64,000 nt of DNA, taken from Heptranchias perlo (lineage: Eukaryota). The translations under genes and the position numbers were made by a program. Positions 1 through 59,747 of this stretch are shown one piece after another. Location of the stretch: positions 24,118,001-24,182,000 of the forward strand of contig NC_090335.1 of the NCBI RefSeq assembly GCF_035084215.1, in the 5' to 3' direction. How positions within the stretch are numbered: position 1 is the first letter of the stretch; each line of letters begins with the position of its first letter. The notes below the pieces were generated by a model. That model was not told the DNA's origin and did not search any database. It saw only the letters and a program-made list of their open reading frames with translations.

Positions 1-308
1 CTTAATGTCACGTTGTCTAAACAAGGCTAGTATCTGTTACTTTCTTGGACCATTAAAATTAAAATTTATTGAGGTGAATGGAAACCCATCAATATTGGAC
101 AGTATTTCATTTTATGAAGCACCTCAATTCATTACAAAACTTCTCCAGAAAGGCATAACTGCTCATTAAACAAAAAAGTTTTCATTCAACATTTTATTTT
201 TACTTTGATAAAATCTTTTTGGTTACAATGAACAAATTCAGGTTTATATAAAGAGAAAAAATCACCTTCCTAAGCTGCTCTTTTTGTCACTATTAACAAC
301 ATTCTTAC

Positions 309-830
309 CTGTTGATTTCTGTTTTCCCGCTGACAGCAAGATCTGCAAATGCTAACAGACTTATCCACACACTCTGCAGCATCTTTCTCTTTAAGCCCTC
401 TATAAAATACTCCACAGGGTAAGTGCAACCTAAACACTTCCAGCTGGAAAGACTTCAACCTTTCTCTCTCATACACACACTGCTTCTGGTTGTGACACTA
501 TTTCACTGAAAAGAATCTCTCTTGCTGCTCTTATTTCTCGCTCTCCCACTCACTGTTCGGCGGTAGTTATGTAAATGAAACAGTCTGACAGTCTCGGTGA
601 AGCACTCGGTGACGTTTCTGCTCTCAGGATTGCCTGCAGTTCTGGGGGGCAGGAGCTGTACGAATTGCTGAGGTGGGCTTGCTATAATGAATTGCCGGGG
701 GTGGGTAGGTGGGCCAGAGCCAGAGGTCTCCATGCTTTGCCTCCCAGACACAATAATGGATTGATTGATACAGCGCACCCTGCTGCTCGCTCACATGGAA
801 ACCACAGCGAAAGCCTCTTCTGTTGAGACT
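309..830 (-). other. Possible promoter / non-coding first exon of a host gene running off the left edge
   Basis: Non-repetitive sequence; minus-strand donor CAACAG|GTAAGAAT with exon end at 309; TGACGT half-site near 610 and TGATTGAT near 762. No recognisable protein. Confidence 0.25.
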
Positions 831-1960
831 TCTTAAATTGAAAACATTTTACTATTAATATTCACAATAGTGTAAGGCGTTCTTTTCTCTTTATTTAACG
901 TATGAGGAGTGCACCTTATAATGGCGAAACAAGCTTTGTTTTAGTGGAATTACTGAAAAGTGTTGAGGGGGGAGTAAATTAATTTACCCATTAATAAAAA
1001 AAGGACAAGGATGGTATTTGTTTTTCTGCACAAGAACATAAATTGGTTTTTCATTTTGTGTCACCTTCCTAGCTCTTTTTTGTCATTGTGTAATGACAAT
1101 GTTCACATCGTTCCTTTTTATAGTTAAACTCCTTCACCGTATTTTACATATTTATAAAACTTTATTTTATTTATTTTTAAATCAGTTTCCCTCTTTTTTT
1201 TCCTCTTCTCTTGGAGGCAATGACTCGTGCTGGGGTTCATTTTCATGTTGCAGTTCCACAGGCATCATAAGTACCTTCTGCTACCTCTTCGAGATGGTGA
1301 GTCTTCACAATGTGAGCTTAGACAATGACTTCACTATCAACGAGCTGCTTCACTGATCCTGTCCTCACACACAAACTTTCCTGAATAACAATCAGGAGTA
1401 AAATTTCCTCTAATGGTACTGTGCTTAAGTGTATACCTGTGGGCAGTGAGTGAATTGAGTGGGTATTGTGTGAAGAACAACATGAGAATGATGGTACTGG
1501 CCCTGAATTTGGTAGGCGGCTGGCTTCGCCATCTTCACTCCCTTTATGCCAATGATCCGGTCTGACCTTGTCAACGGAACTCAAAGTCTTTATATTAAGA
1601 GTTCCTCTTCTGTCCTTATCTGCTCCCTTCTGTCATGTGGCACCTTGTCCTTTAAGAGTTGAGTGGCTGGAACTCTCAGGAGTGCAGACAGTGACACCCA
1701 TGTGCTCATTGCGTGGCCCATAATGAGTGTGAGTTCAGTAATTACATCATCCAGTTAGATTTTCTTTGATGTATTTTTTGGACAGAGCCCTTTGAGAATG
1801 TCAGAATGGCAAGAAATTAAAGGTATATAAGTTACTGCTGTAAAGCATACCCTGCTGCAGATTGGGCATTAATCATATAACATTCAAAGAGCTGTAAGGT
1901 AGTCTGAATGGGAGGAAAACGTTGTGGCATGCAAACTTTGCCAGTCTACTTGGTATAAGG

Positions 1961-2075
1961 TCACTTGGTATGAGTTCTGAAGGAAGGTCATCGACCTGAA
2001 AGGTTAATTCTGTTTCTCTCTTCACAGATGCCGCCAGCCCTGCTGAGTATTTCCAGCATTTTCTGTTTTTATTTA
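1961..2075 (+). mobile_element. Short PLE family-B pseudo-LTR insertion (hammerhead-only)
   Basis: TSD TGGTATAAGG at 1951-1960 and 2076-2085; homologous to the repeats at 33215-33393 and 42190-42626. Confidence 0.75.
1972..2010 (+). ncRNA. Degenerate minimal hammerhead ribozyme (family B)
   Basis: GAGTT-CTGAAGG-A-AGGTC-ATC-GACCT-GAAA-GGT-T-AATTC. Stems I and II pair, but core A9>G and the stem-III palindrome is broken. Confidence 0.55.
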
Positions 2076-3247
2076 TGGTATAAGGCTATAGTGGGTAGTC
2101 TTAGCTGTTGAGGTGTGCAAACTTCTTCTGCATTTGCTACCAGGTCCATTACATTGTGGAAACAGCTTTGACATGGTCTGACACCACCTCCCATGCATTC
2201 TCTAAGTTTCATCTATGTGGACGGTGCCTTGCAGTACCTAATGGGGCAATCCTCCTTTGCTGCACTTTTTCCAGCAGCATCCTTACAGGTGTATGGGCAA
2301 ATCAAGGAACTGATTGATGCCTCTGCTCCAAGTAGCCTATGATTTATAATGCGATCAAACTTTTATCCACCAATCTTTTTAAAATGCTTTTAAATCATTG
2401 CAGTGGCACCAGGTATTCCAGCTCAAGAACAGTGAGCTCCCAGTGACTGGCATGTTACACACTAGGAACTTGCTGCACATACATAATCAGGCCTGACCCC
2501 ACAAAAGTCGGAGGAGGTTAGTCACGCACTGAAAGGTACAAAGTCCGCTATGCAAAGTTCCCGTTCAATCTGTGAACATTGCAGAAAATCTGTGCTTTTC
2601 TGTGTAAGATGTTCCAACAATAATGTATTCAAGGCATGCTTGTTCTCATGTGTGGAGAAATTTCCATTGAGGCCAGCCCAAGTCACAGACAGTATTGTCT
2701 TTTTCCTTGTAAGCAGTTCATTTATTGAACTGTGGTGAAACTGGACCAGTCCAGGATGCAGGCCAGTTTGGGTTTATTGAGACCTCTGAATTTGATCATT
2801 TTTTTTTTACACACATCTTTCTTCTCCTATTTTCTTTCCACTCTGTTTCTTTCTGTAGTTTTAGTTAGGTTGGTAAAGATAGGTTCAGGCCTGCTCAGAG
2901 TCAGAGGTGGTGAAGATTGTATGAAATCTGAACGGTTTGAAATTGGACCAATTCAGATAAACTCAAAAAGATCTTAACTTTTGTCCATTTTGGATGGCGT
3001 GTCCATCAAATAAAAGTAGCATGGTCCCACGTGGACTTTGATACATTTTTATCACACACAGTGTGCAAAGGCACATTGGCAATACCACAGTGACAAATAT
3101 GCAAATATCCACCGTCTCTCTGTCAACTTCTTTTACTGGCAGCTAGAAGTGATTGTCAAATGCTCCAAGCTACCTTTAGTCCTCAATGACTTTTGTCAAT
3201 GACAATTTTTATGTCCATAATAGACAGGCAAAGCCAGTACTTATCTC

Positions 3248-3529
3248 AGGTATCAACCTTGGCTCAGTGGTAGCACTCTCACCTTTGAGTCTGATGGTTG
3301 TGGGTTCAAGTCCCATAATAGAGACTTGAGCACATAATCTAGGCTGATACCGAGGCAGTGCTGCAGGGTTGGAGGTGCCGTCTTTCAGATGAGACATTAA
3401 ACTGAGGCCCTGTCTGTCCTCTCAGGCGAACGTAAAAGATCCTGTTGCACTATTTGAAGAAAAGCAGGGGAGTTCTCCCTGGTGTCCTGGCCAATATTTA
3501 CCTCTCAACCAACATCACTAAAAAACAGA
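3248..3529 (+). mobile_element. Deu-domain SINE (SacSINE1-like), 5' part
   Basis: tRNA-like head with A box TGGCTCAGTGG and B box GGTTCAAGTCC, followed by Deu core (GGTGCCGTCTTTCAGATGAGACATTAAAC...GGCCAATATTT). Confidence 0.8.
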
Positions 3530-3785
3530 GCAGCAGCTATATGTAAACTAGCTGGAGCAATCTCTTATCTTTATCTTGACTGGATTCAAACTTGTCAACA
3601 AAGAATCTACCTAATCAGCTTCTTTTAATAGGTCAAAGTGCCTGTCTGCAAACTCTCATCTTTCTTGGTTCTGGGTTTAAATATGCTCTACTGACTCTGA
3701 CCCTCTCTAACTTGATATCAGGCATCTCAGGCTACCTCTAAAGCAGACCAAAAAAGTTAGATTTAAATACAAATAACAGAGAAAG

Positions 3786-11252: not shown

Positions 11253-11725
11253 TCTGCACTTTCATCTATGGAGGGCCCATACCAGGAGCCTCGCAAAATT
11301 TAACTGTACATTTTTCATATTTCTTTATGGCCGCTTGTATCTGGCCTGCATTGTGATTAGTTCAAATGGTTTCTGCATGGCTGGGAGCAGGCAGTGCAGA
11401 TGGAACACATATTATTTGGACCAGGTACTATGTAAATAGTGTAACTTTAGAGCTCCTTTGTTTCTATGATGTTTTTAATTACATTTGAGGACAACATGCA
11501 CGGCCACAGACAAGCTACGGAAGGCGATGCTTTCCTGCCTTACTGTTTGCCAGAGAGAAGAAGATCTTCAGCAAACAAGCTAGGCTGTTTGATGTGGGAA
11601 TTGAAACAGTTAAGGGGTCGAGGACTAATATGTAGTTATGATGTGGAGATGCCGGTGATGGATTGGGGTTGACAATTGTAAACAATTTTACAACACCAAG
11701 TTATAGTCCAGCAATTTTATTTTAA

Positions 11726-11766
11726 ATTCACAAGCTTTCGGAGATTTTCTCCTTCCTCAGGCAAAT
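11726..11766 (-). ncRNA. Minimal type-I hammerhead ribozyme (family A)
   Basis: Exact inverted copy of 13183-13223. Confidence 0.85.
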
Positions 11767-11879
11767 GTTTCAGGATCTCCTTGAAGCCTACGCATTTATA
11801 CATATTGAACAATACATGGTGTTTACAGACTGCCCCTGCAACTGCCCGTTGCCAAGGCAATCACCGTGTTCAGACAAAT

Positions 11880-12936
11880 TCACAACATCAACAAGTTCCA
11901 TCCCACCATCAAGCTCACCATGGACTACTCCTCAGAATCAGTTTCTTTCTTGGACACACGAATCTCCATCAAAGACGGGCACCTCAGCACCTCACTCTAC
12001 CGCAAGCCCACGGACAACCTCACGATGCCTCACTTTTCCAGCTTCCACCCTAACCACGTCAAAGAGGCCATCCCCTATGGACAGGCCCTGCGAATACACA
12101 GGGTCTGCTCAGACGAGGAGGAACGCGATGGACACCTACAGACGCTGAAAGACGCCCTAGTAAGAACGGGATATGACGCTCGACTCATCGATCGACAGTT
12201 CCGACGGGCCACAGCAAAAAATCGCATAGACCTCCTCAGGAGACTAACACGGGACGCAACCAACAGAGTACCCTTTGTCGTCCAGTACTTCCCCGGAGCG
12301 GAGAAACTACGCCATGTTCTCCGCAGCCTTCAACATGTCATCAATGAGGACAAACACCTCGCTATGGCCATCCCCACACCTCCACTACTCGCCTTTAAAC
12401 AGCCACCCAACCTCAAACAGACCATCGTTCGCAGCAAACTACCTAGCTTTCAAGAGAACAGCGTCCACGACGCCACACAACCCTGCCACGGTAACCTCTG
12501 CAAGACATGCCAGATCATCGACACAGATACCACCATCACACGAGATGACACCACCCACCAGGTGCATGGTTCATACTCCTGTGACTCGGCCAACGTTGTC
12601 TACCTCATACGTTGCAGGAAAGGATGCCCCAGAACATGGTACATTGGCGAGACCATGCAGACGCTGCGACAACGGATGAACGGACACCGCGCAACAATCG
12701 CCAAACAGGAGGGTTCCCTCCCAGTCGGGGAACACTTCAGCAGTCATGGACATTCATCCACCGACCTTCGGGTAAGCGTACTCCAAGGCGGCCTTCGAGA
12801 CACACGACAACGCAAAATCGTCGAGCAGAAATTGATAGCCAAGTTCCGCACCCATGAGGACGGCCTCAACCGGGATCTTGGGTTCATGTCACGCTACACG
12901 TTACCCCACCAGCGAACAAATGTTATCTGTTTTTAA
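11880..12936 (+). pseudogene. 5'-truncated PLE ORF: RT C-terminus/thumb, Cys linker, GIY-YIG endonuclease
   Basis: FHPTIKLT..SVSFLDTRI..SLYRKPTD (RT); CHGNLCKTC linker (Cys knuckle typical of the Neptune group); NVVYLIRC..WYIGET..RMNGH..EQKLI..GLNRD (GIY-YIG). Uninterrupted for ~350 codons. Confidence 0.92.
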
Positions 12937-13087
12937 TATAATGGGTCATTTGCTGGCTCTCTCTGCCTTCCGGATGTTTCTGCCTCTCTCTGTGTTTTTT
13001 TTTCTCTGTTTTTTTTCCCTGTTTGTTTTTTTGTTGAATGTGTCTTCGGGGGTTCTGCAGATGACACCTCTCTGTCTGAACACGGTG

Positions 13088-13154
13088 ATTGCCTTGGCAA
13101 CGGGCAGTTGCAGGGGCAGTCTGTAAACACCATGTATTGTTCAATATGTATAAA
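13088..13154 (+). promoter_or_regulatory. Putative PLE pseudo-LTR promoter (X-box-like, MYB-like, TATA)
   Basis: ATTGCCTTGGCAAC at 13088-13101, CAACGG/CAGTTG, TATAAA at 13149-13154; same motifs and spacing at 16058-16124. Confidence 0.5.
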
Positions 13155-13182
13155 TGCGTAGGCTTCAAGGAGATCCTGAAAC

Positions 13183-13223
13183 ATTTGCCTGAGGAAGGAG
13201 AAAATCTCCGAAAGCTTGTGAAT
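13183..13223 (+). ncRNA. Minimal type-I hammerhead ribozyme (family A)
   Basis: ATTTGC-CTGAGGA-A-GGAGA-AAA-TCTCC-GAAA-GCT-T-GTGAAT: CUGANGA/GAAA core, stem II, palindromic AGCU stem III, stem I with G-U pairs. Confidence 0.85.
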
Positions 13224-14455
13224 TTAAAATAAAATTGCTGGACTATAACTTGGTGTTGTAAAATTGTTTATAATATGTAGTTGTTCATCCTCTCCCTATC
13301 CATTGTTTAAAAATCTTTAAAAGCTGTGAGAAGGAGACATAGCTACCCAGTTGGGATGACTGACCCACGGTGAGGTGTGAATCTGTTGTAGAAGGCACTT
13401 CATCCAGGGTGTCCAATGCTGGTGTTGATTGACAGCTCCATGCTCAGAGTCTGCCCGACAGAAAAATAAACACTGGAATATTTTCTCAGTTTTGTTCCCC
13501 TTTCACTATCCTGCCATGGAGACGGCGATAAATGGAGGATTCTGTGGGGGTAATTTTGACTTTGTGCGATAGTGTAAAACGGGCGATACTGATTCAGCCT
13601 GTTAGACATCTTTCTCAATTTTAATTTCCATTGACTTCAACAAGGACACAAGATGTTTAAATTACTGCATAGCCCATTTCATCACACATCAGCAAAAAGT
13701 AAGATCCTCTTCAAAGTACGTTCCTTCAATGTGTTATTCCAGCCCTGATTCAAAAAATAGATTGTCATGTTGGTGATTGTTGTAAAAGAACATTCAACGT
13801 GCTGTATGTAGTATTTATTATTGAACTGACTAGATAACTTTGAATTATCTGATCTTTCAGAGCTCCTTTCAACATGTCAGAAAGAGAAAGAAAAAGAAAA
13901 CAATATTTATTATTTTAAAACAGACTTTCCAGAGTTAATGCACTATCTGCCTGGGAGTCAGTCTCATATATAAGAAACTTTATCCCTGTCATTCACAGTC
14001 AAGGGAACTTAATTATCCTTGAAATTTACAACTGAAATAACAGTGGTAAATACACAGTAGGCTTACAGTTGGCATTACTTATTCACTACACTCCCCTGTG
14101 TATGGTGAGAATGCACTTCAATACTTTTGACAGATAAAGTGACTGTGAGAAATGTTTGAGAAGCAGTGACCCCAGCCATCGGTTTTCATCATTAGTCCCT
14201 CTCATCCATCGCAATATAAATCAAGCTGTGCGGAGATTTATTTTAGCATCTGCCAGCAGATAATCTATGGATTGGCTCTGGTTATTCCAGGGCTCACGGA
14301 GCCGATAGAGCACAGCCATATCGTTTACCTGACGGCTGCAGTTTGTATGTCTTCATGGTTTTTTAATCTGTATGTTAGCTCAATCTTAAGAAACTACTGA
14401 ATAATCTTCACTTCTATATAGCTATCCAGATACTGGATCAAACCCAGAAAATCTA

Positions 14456-14830: not shown

Positions 14831-14950
14831 GGCCTCATCTGACACACTTAAACATCCACTCCCTCCACCACTGATGCACCGTGGCTGTGGTACTACATAG
14901 TTGTAAACAATTTTACAACACCAAGTTATAGTCCAGCAATTTTATTTTAA

Positions 14951-14991
14951 ATTCACAAGCTTTCGGAGGCTACCTCCTTCCTCAGGTGAAC
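14951..14991 (-). ncRNA. Minimal type-I hammerhead ribozyme (family A)
   Basis: Inverted copy of 16159-16199. Confidence 0.85.
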
Positions 14992-16057
14992 GATGTGGAA
15001 ATGAAGTCCTCGAAATGAAGTCGCATTTATAATTCACAGAACAATGCTGGTGATAACAGACAGTTTTTTCAACTGCCCGTTGCCAAGGCAATCAGTGTGC
15101 AGACAGACAGGTGTTACCTGCCAGGTCTCAGAATATACAAATCACCAAAAAAAACAACAAACAAAAAAAAACAGAGATAGAGAGGTAGAAACATAGAAAA
15201 GACAGCAACTGACCCGTTATATTAAAAACAGATAACATTTGTTCGCTGGTGGGGTAACGTGTAGCGTGACATGAACCCAAGATCCCGGTTGAGGCCGTCC
15301 TCATGGGTGCGGAACTTGGCTATCAATTTCTGCTCTACGATTTTGCGTTGTCGTGTGTCTCGAAGGCCGCCTTGGAGTACGCTTACCCGAAGGTCGGTGG
15401 CTGAATGTCCTTGACTGCTGAAGTGTTCCCCGACTGGGAGGGAACCCTCCTGTTTGGCGATTGTTGCGCGGTGTCCGTTCATCCGTTGTCGCAGTGTCTG
15501 CATGGTCTCGCCAATGTACCATGCTCTGGGGCATCCTTTCCTGCAACGTATGAGGTAGACAACGTTGGCCGAGTCACTCGGCCAATGTTGTCTACCTCAT
15601 ACGTTGCAGGAAAGGATGCCCCGGAGCATGGTACATTGGCGAGACCATGCAGACACTGCGACAACGGATGAACGGACACCGCGCAACAATCGCCAAACAG
15701 GAGGGTTCCCTCCCAGTCGGGGAACACTTCAGCAGTCAAGGACATTCAGCCACCGACCTTCGGGTAAGCGTACTCCAAGGCGGCCTTCGAGACACACGAC
15801 AACGCAAAATCGTAGAGCAGAAATTGATAGCCAAGTTCCGCACCCATGAGGACGGCCTCAACCGGGATCTTGGGTTCATGTCACGCTACACGTTACCCCA
15901 CCAGCGAACAAATGTTATCTGTTTTTAATATAACGGGTCAGTTGCTGTCTTTTCTATGTTTCTACCTCTCTATCTCTGTTTTTTTTTGTTTGTTGTTTTT
16001 TTTGGTGATTTGTATATTCTGAGACCTGGCAGGTAACACCTGTCTGTCTGCACACTG

Positions 16058-16152
16058 ATTGCCTTGGCAACGGGCAGTTGAAAAAACTGTCTGTTATCAC
16101 CAGCATTGTTCTGTGAATTATAAATGCGACTTCATTTCGAGGACTTCATTTC
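16058..16152 (+). promoter_or_regulatory. Putative PLE pseudo-LTR promoter with Inr
   Basis: X-box-like 16058-16071; TATAAA 16119-16124; Inr TCATTTC 16146-16152 with A+1 at 16148, 29 nt after the TATA start. Confidence 0.55.
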
Positions 16153-16158
16153 CACATC

Positions 16159-16199
16159 GTTCACCTGAGGAAGGAGGTAGCCTCCGAAAGCTTGTGAAT
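16159..16199 (+). ncRNA. Minimal type-I hammerhead ribozyme (family A)
   Basis: GTTCAC-CTGAGGA-A-GGAGG-TAG-CCTCC-GAAA-GCT-T-GTGAAT. Confidence 0.88.
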
Positions 16200-17024
16200 T
16201 TAAAATAAAATTGCTGGACTATAACTTGGTGTTGTAAAATTGTTTACAATTGTCAACCCCAGTCCATCACCGGCATCTCCACATCAGTACTACATAGTGT
16301 ATACTATCTACAGGATGCACTGCAGCAACTCACCAAGGCTTCTTTGGCAGCACCTCCCAAACCCATGACCTCCACCATCTAGAAGGACAAGGGCAGCAAG
16401 TGCATGGGAACACCATCACTTCCAAGTTCCTCTCCAAGTCACGCAACATCCCACCTTGGACATAAATAACCGTTCCTTCATCATCGCTGGGTCAATATCC
16501 TGGAACTCCTGAACTAACAGCATTGTGGGAGCAGCTTCACCACATGGACTGCAGCTGTTCAAGAAGAAGGCTCACCACCACCTTCTCAAGGGCAACTAGG
16601 ACTGGGCGAGAAATGCTGGCCTCGCCTGCAACGTCCACATCCCAAGAATGAATTTAAAAAAAACACAATTATCAGGAAGTGTTTCTGGTGAGGTCAACAC
16701 TAATGGCTTTGCAATTAAAAAGTATTCACATATCGAGGCCAAATAGTGTCAGTACAGCCATATGTGGCTATCTTGTCTGTAGCCCTGCCTTTTCTCACTA
16801 AACAGTTACTAGCTACACCTACTGAATGTGAATTGTATCTCACACAGGATTTGAATTGTGACAGGACACCAATGCATCACAGTAAGATGGCAATAGGCAG
16901 AATAGAGATTCAAGGGCCATGAATTTTGTGAAAGTACGCGTTAGAACAAGAAGAGGAAATAGACTAATGAGCATGCCCTTGCAGTTGTTCTAGTTTGTGA
17001 ATTTTAAAATGAATGTCAGTTCAT

Positions 17025-17563
17025 AGACTTGAAAAATTGGATCTTTTTTCATTAGAACAACGCAGATTATGAGGCAGTATGATAGAAGTGTTTAAAATTA
17101 GGAATGTAAGGAATCTTACAACACCAGGTTATAGTCCAACAGTTTTATTTGGTGTTGTAAGATTACTTACATTTGTCCACCCCAGTCCATCACCGGCATC
17201 TCCACATTAAAATTAGGAAAGGATGGGACAGGGTAGATAAAAGTAGACTGGTTTCAGTGGTTGAGGGATCAAGAGAAGGGCCCGTAGATACGAGATCAAA
17301 GGTAAGAGATTTAGAACAGAGATTAGGAGAAACATTTATGCAGAGAGTTGTGAGGCTATGGAATTCACTTCCAGGGTTAGTAGTTGAGGTAGAAACTAGG
17401 TCAACATCCGAGATTAGATTAGATAGGCGGATGAAGGAAAAGGGGTTGACGAGATACAGGAATAGGGTGGGTAAACGTGATTGGAACCATTTTATCACTT
17501 GAAGGGTAAACATACACGTGGACTGGTTGGGCCTGTTTCTGTGTTGTAACTTCTATGTATTTC
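17025..17563 (+). mobile_element. Old CR1 3' fragment interrupted by a mini-PLE
   Basis: IEVFKI | RKGWDRVDK..FMQRVVRLWNSLP continues across the insertion. Confidence 0.75.
17105..17206. mobile_element. 102-bp inverted PLE terminus insertion (family-A variant)
   Basis: TSD TTAAAATTAGGAA at 17092-17104 and 17207-17219; inverted TGTAAGGAATCTTACAACACCA / TGGTGTTGTAAGATTACTTACA plus tail CCCCAGTCCATCACCGGCATCTCCACA. Confidence 0.88.
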
Positions 17564-40902: not shown

Positions 40903-42189
40903 CTGGCAGGTGTTGGTGTGAGGGGTTGTGCAGGGTAGGTGGGTGGGTCCTCGGACTGGGGCTGCGGTTTCGTGTCGGTCTGTCCTCTGGCTTGGCGGGG
41001 GTTGGTGGAGGGCAGGGGTTGCCCTATGTGACGCGGTGGCCCCCTGCGTGGGTGAGGGCTCTCCCCCGTGGAGCGCACCTTGGCACCTGCCACAGGCTGC
41101 TGGCTGCAACACGCCTGGTTTGAAAGGTACTGTTTCCCCCAGTGTGGGAGACTGACTGCGTTGAACCTAAAATCCCACACTTTCTCTTTTGACAGCTGCT
41201 TCAGCTCATTAACTGACCACAACGAGCAAGTTAAGTGCTCTCAAGTGGAACCCCGCTGGCTTTAATTGCCTGCGGGATTCCCACCAGCGGGGCTTGCGCG
41301 CGCAGGCCCGCATGTCAGCGCGGTACCCGGAAGTGGCCGGGATTTCGTCCGAATCCGGTCACGTGACCGGAGATCGGGATTTTCGGGGCCCCCCCCGCTG
41401 GAAACCCGCAGGTAACCCGACCCTAAAATCGAGCCCCTGATTACAGGTAGAAAAGGCTTTTTTACTTCACACTGTCCTGGAGGATACACGTCATCAGGGA
41501 TTTATCTGGACTGCTCCAATCTTGTATGGAGGTGCTGAAAGCTAAGCATAAACCATGTCAGCCTGTATCACTGAGGGGTACCTACAGCAAACAATAAGAG
41601 GTCTATTCAACTTTTGCCATGCATGCTGTTGGAGCCTAGTGATGACTGGTGCTATATTTACTGTAATAATGCACCCATGTTGAGTGTGGATGCCCAAAGT
41701 AGGATAACTTGATGTGAGGCAGGAATCCAATATTCCCATGAGGAATTTTTTTTTCCTTAGGAAATCTGTTCTCAGTTTATGTGCTTAGCACACAGACTTC
41801 AGATAAAAATATTATAACAAGAAACATTATATTACAGGAACAGCAAAGGCCACCTACCTTGCTTCTAAATGCTGAATTATTCATAAAGGGGGTTTTAAAA
41901 AATTTTACTTATAAGGAAACTATTTTTGGAAAGTAAGTCTTTTGACTTACAAAGGCCGTCGGGAATGCCCCATTCAGGATTCTTCAGTAGCCTCTACGTC
42001 CGCCAATGACTGATAAATGTAAAATTAAAACAAAAACATCCTGTGAAGCCAGTTTGAGGAGGAGTGCTCCCCCGAACCCACAGGAGTCATGATTGCCACC
42101 CCTCCCCCCACCCCCCCCCTCCCTCACCCCCAGTAGCCCGCTCGGTTCTGGCACAGGTTAATTTCTTGGCCAATAGCGAAATTCATGGA

Positions 42190-42626
42190 CTAAAAACAGA
42201 AAATGCTGGAGAAGCTCAGCAAGTGAGGCAGCACCTGTGGAGAAAGAAACAGAGTTAACGTTTCAGGTTGAAGACCTTTCGTCAGAACTGGAAGATGTTA
42301 AAGAGTTAAAATGTTTAAGCAAGTACAGAGGCAGGGAAAGGGAGGGAGGGAGGGGTGGGGAGGAAAGAACAAAAGGGAAGGTCTGTGATAGGGTAGAGGG
42401 CATGAAAGATTAAAGGACAAAAGGGATGATGGTGCAAGTCAAGGAAGGTGGTAATGGGACAGGTTAAGAAATAAAAGATTGATCAGGAGTAGCTGTAAAT
42501 GGCCGCAGTGGAACCATTACCAGCATTAGCTAACCGAAAAAATGGGAGCAATGGTTATGATCTGAAGTTATTGAAATCAATGAAACCCTTATTTCAGATT
42601 TCCAGCATCCGCATTATTTTGCGTGT
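42190..42626 (-). mobile_element. PLE family-B 3' fragment with short inverted tail
   Basis: TSD GAAATTCATGGA at 42178-42189 and 42627-42638; minus arm starts TAAAAACAGAAAATGCTGG; plus arm TTATTTCAGATTTCCAGCATCCGCATTATTTTGC. Confidence 0.82.
42253..42289 (-). ncRNA. Minimal type-I hammerhead ribozyme (family B)
   Basis: AGTT-CTGACGA-A-AGGT-CTTCA-ACCT-GAAA-CGT-T-AACT. Confidence 0.78.
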
Positions 42627-56000: not shown

Positions 56001-57376
56001 TTGAGGTACTAGAAAGCAACTGGTGGGGAGTTAAAATCTACCCCAATGTTTTCAAGATGGAGGGGGCGAGGGACGGGAAAAAATAGCAGAAAAAGGAGAA
56101 AATTAAATTATAAAAAAGCGAAATGTAAGATCATATTCTCAGACTTTGTACATTGTGTCCCGGGCCTTTGATCATTCAAGCTGATAAAAGGAACAGATTT
56201 TTAAAAAAGAGAACAGATTGCCTCCCATTGTAATTCTTTAATTATTCTGTCAAGCAGTCCGTTCCTGCCAATGGTCTCCATTGTGATAAATAGCAGCCGG
56301 AATTCTGCATCTGCACTCAAGCCAAAATTAATCATCTGAAGCCTGGAAATAAATGGTCCTATTCAAATACTGCAAAAAAAGAGAGACTTTCATTTTACAT
56401 AACCAGAGCTTTTTAAATGGTTATGGGAACAGAACTGGTTTGAAGTCTCATTGGTTGTTTGGAGCCAATATACTATCCGCAGTGAGAAAGAATGCTAGTA
56501 GCCACAGTGCCCAAAATAAAAAAATCTGGCATGCAGCTTCCAGCAACTGTCCACAGTCTCTTTCTTGATGATTAATAACAAGCTGCTGCTCAGTATTCTC
56601 TCTGCTGTCAATTAAAAAGGGGAAAGAGAAACTGTGATGGAACGTTATAATCACTGTTCCTCAAAGCTTCTATCCACAGTAATTTTAAATGTAGTATAAC
56701 CATAGCAAAGATTCGGTCAACATCTTCCCAATTTGCCAAAAATCAGTGAGGATTTTTGGACACGAGAGCAAATAGGTTCATTTATTTATTTTCTTTCAGG
56801 TAATTTGATATGTACCTGGTGAAGCAAAGGCACCACATCAACTGGAAGAAATAGTTCAAATCCAGGGGGGCTCGAAGTGGATATTGACGACGGCAGATGT
56901 TGTAACTAATGAAACATGGCCATCAAATACCATATTCAGCAATCAGGTGGCATCACCTTTCAAGGTTTCCACAAGGAATCTAACCAGCATCAGAAGGTTT
57001 TGATGCTTTGATCCATGTAGACGCAGAATGGTCCCTTGCAGCACAAGATAGCAGCTTTGCTCTGGCATTTAGGTCCCAAGAAATCTCTGGCATTGCATGC
57101 TGCTTTAATTACTCCACAGCTCATGTTAATAGTTTCAGGTTCCACACAAAACTTCTTGATAAAGGCGAGAACCTGGTTCTCAATCATCTTGGCACTTCAA
57201 AGAATGTAGACAATGCTCTCTCTGCTGTTTGCTTTGCTATCTCTCCATGTTTATATGAGGCACCATATGATTGACAGTGAAATCACAGCCACACATTTTA
57301 GAGAATGCATATAATGGCCCTGGTTTACTGCCTATAATATAATGAAAGGAGTGAATTCCTAATCTCTTTTGATGTG

Positions 57377-57506
57377 CACACCACCTGAGGAAGGAGGAAG
57401 CCTCCGAAAGCTTGTGGGATTAAAAATAAAATTGTTGGACTATAACTTGGTGTTGTAAAATTGTTTACAATTGTCAACCCCAGTCCATCACCGGCATCTC
57501 CACATA
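57377..57506 (+). mobile_element. 130-bp hammerhead-only PLE family-A insertion (distal tail)
   Basis: TSD TTTTGATGTG at 57367-57376 and 57507-57516. Confidence 0.9.
57381..57417 (+). ncRNA. Minimal hammerhead ribozyme (family A)
   Basis: CCAC-CTGAGGA-A-GGAGG-AAG-CCTCC-GAAA-GCT-T-GTGG. Confidence 0.82.
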
Positions 57507-57885
57507 TTTTGATGTGGTGCAGTCTCAGATTGTGCTTCACGACACATACTGAGGGGATTTATTCTGTGGTGGATTTACGTGGAAATAGCACTGAAACTGT
57601 AAATGTAACTTTGACAAGGACCGGCTCAAATTTCCTTGGTATATCTTTGTTAAATGCTCTTGATGGATTCCAACACTATTAGCACCCTCGAAAGGGGTTC
57701 GGGGTGGGGGGTGGGGGGAGAGATAAAATCTAGTGATGCTGCGACAGCTGAAAGGTCCAAGACAGCCATTTTGTGTCTGTAACAATGTCAATCACTGCAA
57801 TGTCTAATGCTGATGCTTCTTCAGGGCACCGAGCCCACAAATTTAAGGGCTCTTCAGTTACGATGTCACTCTCTGTAATCTAGTG

Positions 57886-57983
57886 TAAACAATTTTACAA
57901 CACCAAGTTATAGTCCAACAATTTTATTTGAAATTCACAAGCTTTCGGAGGCTTCCTCCTTCCTCAGGTGAATGTTGTGGAAA
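57886..57983 (-). mobile_element. 98-bp hammerhead-only PLE family-A insertion (proximal end)
   Basis: TSD TCTGTAATCTAGTG at 57872-57885 and 57984-57997. Confidence 0.9.
57933..57973 (-). ncRNA. Minimal hammerhead ribozyme (family A)
   Basis: ATTCAC-CTGAGGA-A-GGAGG-AAG-CCTCC-GAAA-GCT-T-GTGAAT, with a perfect 6-bp stem I. Confidence 0.88.
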
Positions 57984-59747
57984 TCTGTAATCTAGTGAAG
58001 GAGGACCCAGCTTTTTGGGACAAGAGAATGAGGCCCATGAAGGCCTGATCCAGGCCCATAGAAGGAGGTAGCCGTGGCTGTGTGTACCACCTCCAACAAC
58101 CCCAGCAAGGCTACTCAATGCTGAAAGTTCACTGATCTCTCCAAGGTAACAGAAGGCAGTCATAACTTGCAACAATGCACTATAATAAGCTTCCTACCCA
58201 GTTGTAGCACCATCTGGAACGTACCACATATGTACAGGTACCATAATACCCTTAACACCCCCTTCCTTCTTGTGCAACTGTTCCTTTACTCACAGCTGAA
58301 CACAGAGGGAAGCAGTGGGCTGCTTACATGACAGGATATTTCATTGCCATCCTCATCCCATTAAGGAATGCTTTCTGAAACCTGAGTTTCATTTCATATG
58401 ATGGCATGCAGTTCACTCTCTCAACTTTCCTCTTGGAAATGCCCACAAATCTCCTGCAAATCATTGGCCAGCCACCTTCGAACCTCCTGCCACAATAGGA
58501 GAAGTAAGAGGCTGGGATTGAGCAGCGACACAATATCAGACACCGGGGGAAGCATGGTGGCCTTGAACAAAAGGAAGGTTATCAGATTTGTTTTCAGTGA
58601 AATCTTTTTGTCACCGATGGGATGTGTGTGGAATGCTTTGGGGCAATGGCTGCACAAAGGAATAGTGGAATGAAAGCCTTGGAATACAGCCAAATGTCAG
58701 CAATCAACTAAGTTGAGTTTGTTGCCGAAGGGGCACCGTCATCGGATTAAGTGGCACCTTTGTAGTTGACTCCTATTGCAATGTCAAATGGTTAGCTCCA
58801 TTTGCTCGATATAGGTGGCTGTCTGGGATAAGCAGGGACAGGGTAAGAGGTGGGGACTGTATAACCCTCTTTATACCACATATAATTCAAACAAAGAAAA
58901 AGAGCTGTCTCGAACTTGCTCGGGTTGTGCACCTAACTTAGAAAGCTTGCAAATGCCGACCAACAGTTTCAAAAAACTGATACAGCCTACAGAAAGCTCA
59001 AGAACAGCCCTGAATCTGGGTCTTAAAACATGCGAGGACAAGTAGTTAAACTGAAAGTGTAATGGGATATGGGCTTGTCATAACCTGAGTAGTGGGTACA
59101 CCCAACAGTCAATCACTTTTATCACAGATGTAAAACAACTGAAGTACACAAAAAATGAGGCTTGTAGCAGTAATAAATGTAGAAATCACTGAGGGTGGGG
59201 GGGAGGGGACGATTGGGAAGGGGGAGAGGAGCAGTCCTGCTCCTTGTGACTCCACAAAAAAACATTTTAGAAGCTTTGAGGCCTTTTTTTGAGTGGCCTT
59301 CAGCGGTCCCTTTGGTTAGGCTGCTCAAAACTCATGCATCACAAGCTCCAATTGGGGCACACAAATTTAGGAGTCCGGATCTGAAATGAGCAGCCGCCTA
59401 AAATAAGATCCCAACCAATTTAGCAGTGACCCAAATTCCAGTGCAGATCGGGTGCAGGCCTCTGCACTGCTAGTTTGGTTCTCATTACACCCGTTAAAGG
59501 CCCATAAAATGGCCGCAACGATGTTTAAATCTAGACCCACTTGGGCGGAACTTTCAACCTCAGCAGAGGCGAGAAATGGGAGTGATCAGATCGGCCACCC
59601 ATTATACACTCAGCCTGAATTTCCTTTCCATTGCAAGTTTTGCCGATTGTCTATAAGAGCAGGGAAGAGGCTGGGTACTTCTTGAATGAGTGGATTACCT
59701 CCTGACCCCACGAAGCCCACCATTTACAAAGTTCAAGTCAGGAAAGG

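Follow-up and report, generated by a model that had tools for sequence, protein, structure and literature searches.

The window analysed here, a 64,000-nt stretch of the Heptranchias perlo genome (NC_090335.1, positions 24,118,001 to 24,182,000), has repeats that seem to resemble those of cartilaginous fish and carries inserts that consist of little more than a hammerhead ribozyme, which raises the question of what sets the ends of such short copies. A clean case lies on the minus strand at 57886–57983: as an earlier note on this DNA had claimed, it is a 98-bp solo insert between identical 14-bp TSDs (57872–57885 and 57984–57997), and it belongs to a Neptune-like PLE that we call family 1. It reads (A)TTTCCAC..., with A+1 at 57984 common to TSD and insert, and runs from the initiator T+2 to the proximal 3' end, TTGTTTA; its 5' start, the A/T of CATTTCC 17 nt above hammerhead C3 (57967), matches the initiator that had been predicted separately at 16148. 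A minimal type I hammerhead occupies 57933–57973 on the minus strand in the order stem I 5' strand, CUGAGGA (containing C3), stem II, GAAA with a GCUU palindromic stem III, and stem I 3' strand; stems I and II are present in both the MFE and the centroid fold, and the cut is predicted after 57939. A second solo insert of family 1, on the plus strand at 57377–57506, starts at C3-8 (C3 = 57385), 5 nt short of the initiator A in the best-matching long copy, has a ~37-nt tail at its end, and is flanked by 10-bp TSDs (57367–57376 and 57507–57516). Both inserts share CUGAGGA, a hairpin that forms stem II, GAAA, a stem III consisting of a four-base palindrome, and a stem I that is short; the hammerheads were identified via the core motif and stems I and II, by eye and by folding, and a search against Rfam at E≤1 returned no hammerhead. 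Exact pattern searches of the 3.25-Gb genome returned 63,150 copies of a 32-nt 3' anchor and 15,569 copies of the 33-nt hammerhead core compared with 0 for reversed-pattern controls, indicating that the short inserts are not chance occurrences.

The initiator at 16148 belongs to a long-long head-to-head family-1 insertion at 14902–16286 (proximal arm left, tail arm right; 12-bp TSDs at 14890–14901 and 16287–16298). Here a TATA-like box, TATAAATG, at 16119–16126 on the plus strand, the same as in most long copies, precedes the initiator-like TCATTTC at 16146–16152 (plus strand), whose A at 16148 is TATA+29 and is the site of a genome-wide cliff of 5' ends. A second long-long head-to-head insertion, at 11638–13270 (12-bp TSDs at 11626–11637 and 13271–13282), includes the 3' part of a predicted RT/EN ORF. 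The complete reading frame was found in the family-1 copy L125, whose pLTRs are in partial tandem: a single 902-aa ORF (L125:1872–4580) stands directly after pLTR and tail, matches Pfam RVT_1 (E 3.3e-10) and has a CX4CxxC linker; Pfam gave no GIY-YIG match at E≤0.001, and inspection of the sequence by eye shows a VVY...YIG pair of motifs close to the C-terminus. A Zn-finger-like CX2-5CxxC linker between RT and EN, common to Neptune and Nematis, is the criterion given in the accessible part of PMC8557442, by which the predicted protein identifies family 1 as a Neptune-like Penelope-like element. Neptune-type EN+ units, as far as they are described in the accessible parts of PMC8557442 and PMC3846280, resemble those found here in having a pLTR with an adjacent inverted 5'-truncated copy, a 30–40-bp tail at one end only and a TSD, a hammerhead in the pLTR, and a single ORF (predicted RT-EN here) with a CX4CxxC linker. 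The 3' extents of family-1 arms were bimodal, at 2–5 and 38–40 nt past the anchor, and only one end of an insertion bears the tail. The tail ends at the distal RT start site, immediately before the ORF ATG (L125:1872–4580; window 16246–16286); it thus closes the 5' UTR, and run-off copies hold no ORF.

Three further observations concern these insertions. The 14902–16286 insertion is a near-perfect palindrome with 674-nt arms and a 1-nt spacer, both long arms ending at one point, as could result if they had a broken RNA end in common or if one arm had served as template for the other; Rfam matches to mir-633 at 15537–15613 are the centre of this palindrome. A small head-to-head doublet at 17105–17215, a more diverged family-1 relative with a TSD-like flank and no hammerhead in either arm, gives rise to an Rfam mir-3015 match. 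At L027, one arm of a short doublet has ~18 nt at the junction that read as the reverse complement of the ORF 3' end, which suggests a template switch.

Next, we mapped the 5' ends of family-1 copies. From 407 stretches we obtained 384 family-1 arms and measured their 5' reach against real long copies (81 and 93 references); arms with under 150–200 nt upstream or 60–90 nt downstream in the sampled stretch were left out before counting, and the samples are almost all from contig C1 and of exact-match (young) copies. Among 222 anchor-found arms, the per-base end rate was 3.0% at C3-20 to C3-7 (71/169 at risk), 1.0% at C3-6 to C3+6, 0.19–0.58% across and below the ribozyme (0.58% at the cut site, C3+26 to C3+33; 10/217), 0.41% at C3-45 to C3-21, and 0.16% further upstream (13/88). 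As a control, uniformly cut long copies passed through the same pipeline gave a flat histogram, with 170/320 called exactly. Relative to the initiator A, 17 of 225 arms ended at A+1 and 27 at T+2, with 1–4 per base just upstream. Only about a third of arms end right at A+1/T+2 (44/140 at risk); the remainder fall short of it by anything from a few bases to tens of bases and give the distribution a 3' tail of shortened copies beyond the initiator peak. Nested exact counts for the 16148 subfamily across the genome fell from 4590 copies reaching TATA+33 to 3580 at +30, 1907 at +27 and 1737 at +24, which are losses of 22%, 47% (across the TCA of the initiator-like motif) and 9% per three-base step; point mutations are part of these counts, as is any subfamily whose upstream letters differ, and the 9% step bounds mutation. 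The peak that the earlier note had expected at the initiator is therefore present, and neither uniform 5' ends nor a peak at the ribozyme cleavage site was observed: only 1/222 arms starts within 1 nt of the start of the cleavage product. That so few ends lie at the cut site speaks against cleavage of the template and, together with the intact core of 157/173 short arms spanning C3, supports the proposal that the copies spread in an uncleaved state. It seems probable to us that 5' ends of short PLE inserts pile up at an initiator-like base 27–33 nt behind a TATA-like box since reverse transcription probably starts internally, 100–140 nt into an uncut RNA, and runs off its first base. The claim that short inserts are complete run-off cDNAs and not random truncations is thus supported by the initiator peak; the template may have been the 5' pLTR of a full-length transcript or any pLTR-started RNA.

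If the end of the template were made by processing, such that a longer tandem transcript is cut or trimmed and not initiated there, the peak might be expected to keep a fixed distance from the ribozyme. Such processing could be by an endonuclease, by a 5'-3' exonuclease stalled by a bound protein or by the hammerhead fold, or by cleavage of the poly(A) type after CA, in which TATAAA would act as a variant signal. The TATA-to-C3 distance within family 1 varies from 38 to 47 nt, and the ends were found at +29/+30 (C3-17/-16) in 14/31 arms of subfamily S46, at +27 to +32 in S44 types, and at +30 (C3-10/-9) in 6/27 arms of S40. Subfamilies S38/S39 (TATA-to-C3 distance 38–39) show a shoulder of ends at +18 to +27, upstream of the predicted start, with 16/59 ends in this interval for S38 in a sample selected for reaching C3-10, which thereby excludes its own +29/+30 ends; these ends near C3-13 to C3-19 resemble the S44/S46 peak and count in favour of processing. 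So does a subfamily with TTCAAATG instead of TATAAATG (L031, L040, L044, L061, L069 and L071), in which the peak survives the loss of the TATA consensus: it keeps the same A/T peak, 16/22 of its arms are short, and the TATA box itself may therefore not be needed, hinting at an initiator-driven or internal promoter.

The window also contains copies of a second hammerhead family, which differs from family 1 in sequence and has the same layout. The earlier note had lumped the two: 57377, 57886 and 16148 are family 1, and 1961–2075 and 33215 are family 2. The insert at 1961–2075 (10-bp TSDs at 1951–1960 and 2076–2085) consists of 12 nt of filler (1961–1972) followed by the solo short element proper at 1973–2075 (plus strand), which starts at C3-4, the position of the A of an initiator-like CCAGTT. 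At 33215–33393 lies a lopsided head-to-head pair of two unequal arms, a minus arm with tail and hammerhead (33215–33347, start C3-2) and a plus arm without hammerhead (33351–33393), while a long minus-strand arm at 42186–42330 runs through the TATA-like box and continues past 42330. The statement that the window copies begin at or near hammerhead stem I thus holds for 57377–57506 (C3-8), 1973 (C3-4) and the 33215 arm (C3-2), with the corrections that 1961–1972 is filler and that the 33215 arm is no solo. Hammerhead, two 3' end classes, head-to-head pairs and the TSD at 1951/2076 indicate that family 2 is probably an EN+ Penelope-like element as well. Its TATA-like box (TTAAAAAC/TCAAAAAC), a poor TATA match, lies 31–34 nt above C3. 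In 140 arms (8/148 anchor matches with an alignment score under 12 were excluded), 32/98 at risk ended at C3-6 to C3-0, which is TATA-like +28 to +34 around the A of CCAGTT, and only 3/63 at risk at C3-20 to C3-14. Since family 2 and S40 peak at other distances from C3, the peak tracks box +27 to +34 and the initiator-like YA step, not the ribozyme, which speaks against processing; in addition, most copies retain the A of CA, which cleavage after CA would remove. All considered, processing appears to us an unlikely source of the template end. Splicing was examined as a source of the family-2 ends, CCAG/TT resembling a 3' splice site, and was rejected: 20/32 peak arms keep at least one letter of the would-be intron end, and there is no common upstream exon.

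We then examined the letters at the junctions. Long arms read ATTTCC with three T's in 77/78 cases and never more, whereas short arms had four or more T's in ATTT(T)CC in 20/51 versus 0/78 (Fisher p 5e-10), and the T run was preceded by A in 12/13 four-T cases and in 7/7 unpaired cases where either A or another letter could stand; the two arms of a pair do not count as independent here, and where a doublet is perfect its A may derive from the partner. Extra T's after A are what would be expected at an RNA 5' end, and they fit slippage at initiation better than processing; bacterial RNA polymerase is established to slip on homopolymers at the start site (PMC8812562), and Pol II slippage within 10 bases of the start is reported in the accessible text of PMC5055313, with reference to Pal and Luse 2002. 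Stutter by RT at the end of its template would give the same picture, and both place the RNA end at that A, so the extra T's locate it either way. Both arms of L068 have 7 T's, and both arms of L032 and of L205 have 4; the seven T's of L068 suggest that the two arms come from one RNA molecule or that one was copied from the other. An untemplated cap G, which the earlier note had considered, was not in excess (G before 6/17 family-1 arms starting at A+1 and 3/6 in family 2), a point on the side of processing. A depth step near 16150 in four presumed-RNA contig sets is no evidence, because short genomic copies would give the same.

Stutter could also occur with no RNA end at all, if RT stalled or jumped at a hot spot just above stem I (the U run, or short palindromes serving as microhomology); palindromes such as GGAGCTCC and AT/AAATTT overlaps are indeed present at many pair junctions. 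However, partnerless solos have the same peak (28/50 at TATA+26 to +33, and 12/27 of those with a TSD), few ends fall at a second ATTTC located five bases upstream (3 at -5), no fold was found upstream of stem I in the 16148 copy, long copies pass the site with exactly three T's, and family 2 has other letters at its peak. We therefore regard such a hot spot as very unlikely, and favour run-off at an RNA end.

Short copies were mostly not solo insertions but head-to-head pairs, a product that the earlier note does not mention, with 57886–57983 a clean member of a solo minority (50 short unpaired arms, 27 with TSD). We found 116 head-to-head pairs, 103 of which had 9–16-bp TSDs (mode 12–13) compared with 1/300 mismatched controls, and 101/103 TSD pairs combined one proximal and one tail arm. 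Arm lengths were concordant within pairs (29 long-long, 66 short-short and 6 mixed; Fisher p 4e-19), and short-short arms had 11/357 diagnostic differences versus 33% for random arms. The proximal arm reached further 5' in 26 pairs, the tail arm in 20, and the two were within 2 nt in 20; the longer arm extended past +26 in 15/67 short-short pairs. Fold-back of one tail-primed cDNA is disfavoured, the tail-less arm reaching further 5' in 26/66 pairs. Two RNAs held together by the palindromic stem III are disfavoured as a general rule by the length concordance and the 11/357 differences; they may explain a minority, given that 7/68 pairs differ at the CUGA[G/C]GA site and that a minority thus use two RNAs.

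A mechanism that would join these observations runs as follows. Pol II would start at the A of CATTTCC and sometimes slip on the U run. In a related element (Frangieh 2024, in the part accessible), the protein nicks both target strands and the cDNA starts at a proximal or a tail site ~37 nt apart. The start site in the upstream pLTR is only 100–140 nt from the first base of the RNA, so the cDNA would run off there, and the copies do span TSS to start site, keeping the intact hammerhead and having neither TATA box nor ORF. If the downstream pLTR were used instead, synthesis would continue into the ORF and give long copies. Of two nicks 12–13 bp apart, each would usually prime a cDNA on the same pLTR, the two cDNAs beginning at different start sites; the head-to-head doublet would be two run-off cDNA ends joined, and a solo such as 57886–57983 would result from the less frequent joining of one cDNA to the target. 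That the start is capped, that both arms copy one RNA and the manner in which ends are joined are what we infer from the sequences. In its most specific form, in which one protein dimer nicks both strands 12–13 bp apart, makes two copies of one stretch within a single uncut capped RNA (one copy per internal start site), runs off at the TSS with the U's from Pol II slippage retained, and fuses the two cDNA ends, the proposal is tentative: we see it as quite possible, if somewhat short of probable. If true, this single-dimer double-copy model would explain the clade-wide inverted pLTR and one-sided tail without antisense templates, hammerhead cleavage would have no part in insertion, and the start sites of any PLE could be mapped from DNA alone.

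The two internal start sites have a precedent in Anolis carolinensis Poseidon PAc, for which the accessible part of PMC11167929 reports that two internal RT start sites bound the tail, that both target strands are nicked and extended, that hammerhead cleavage is not needed, and that uncleaved RNA is the dominant substrate, with no reads ending at the cut site. In PAc the ORF starts inside the hammerhead and the start sites are 111+ nt into it, whereas here the ATG is directly after the tail. For the elements of PMC8557442 and PMC3846280, the accessible text calls short parts 5'-truncated and puts head-to-head palindromes down to self-priming on an antisense template; in contrast, the ends described here peak at the initiator, the arm with the longer 5' reach can be either of the two, and each arm uses one of the two start sites. 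The pLTR of Adineta Pen2a is noted there to have a TATA box and an Inr-like motif. Minimal hammerheads of metazoan PLEs (PMC4209133, accessible part) likewise occur as thousands of single motifs and as opposite-strand doublets 100–700 bp apart, and have a palindromic stem III and low monomer activity; that work took them for probably truncated PLEs and proposed template self-cleavage and circularisation, whereas the distribution of ends here argues for an uncut RNA source.

A SINE-like or retrozyme-like family that propagated itself, being copied from short masters and driven by an internal promoter, would also fill the genome with short copies, and the very high copy number would suit it. The accessible text of PMC2377424 describes an internal TATA-less promoter in D. 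virilis Penelope; for the same reason, the earlier term 'promoter-less' for the short copies, from which the TATA box is absent, is secure for that box only. Animal non-LTR retrozymes derived from pLTRs are described in the accessible part of bioRxiv 10.64898/2026.07.22.740005 and are, like the copies here, non-coding and hammerhead-bearing; those are tandem repeats with a hammerhead per unit, whereas the copies in the window are solos or head-to-head pairs with TSDs and no head-to-tail tandem units. No head-to-tail arrays of short units stood out on inspection of the stretches. Moreover, every subfamily has short arms that match long copies of its own subfamily, sequences above family-2 junctions have only partner-arm words in common, and the 5' ends would mark a start site even so. 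An independent short family is for these reasons highly improbable in our view, and copying from the uncut RNAs of long elements remains the preferred reading.

Earlier work already describes pLTRs that are inverted and truncated, tails on one side only, and minimal hammerheads dispersed in large numbers, among them doublets on opposite strands (accessible parts of PMC8557442, PMC3846280 and PMC4209133). A literature search of titles and abstract starts, with subscription papers outside its coverage, found no mapping of PLE 5' ends to a start site, and the accessible part of PMC11167929 contained none for genomic copies, with its Fig. S2 on genomic copy ends possibly bearing on novelty. The element class is thus known, and the rule for where its short copies begin is well supported and apparently undescribed. 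It touches three puzzles of the Penelope cycle, namely inverted pLTRs in insertions, the tail on one end only and the role of the hammerhead; it turns 'random 5' truncation' into a testable run-off model, and the end statistics lend in-genome support to the result, obtained in vitro, that the template is uncut RNA. If short copies are, as is likely, DNA copies of the start of uncut RNA, the genome itself would show where the element RNA starts and how it is copied. Extrapolating from 71/222 sampled arms to the 63,150 exact anchors gives ~20,000 arms in the initiator window, and with most short arms keeping the ribozyme core, a large pool of latent hammerheads.

Finally, we observed that ~9/140 family-2 arms are broken at C3+25 to C3+27 by another repeat with GGGCCCG-like inverted ends (L200:-, L340:- and L391:+; also L300, L309, L372, L395, L402, L339 and L381), which looks like a Harbinger-type element. 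A literature search found nothing on repeat insertion at a hammerhead cleavage triplet. At L200 and L340 the upstream hammerhead half is 2049 and 1767 nt away, respectively, with a duplication (3-bp TSD) of the triplet that precedes the predicted cut site; L391 resembles them with a distance of 935 nt. Judging from these junctions, the target preference of the interrupting repeat looks to coincide with the ribozyme cleavage triplet.
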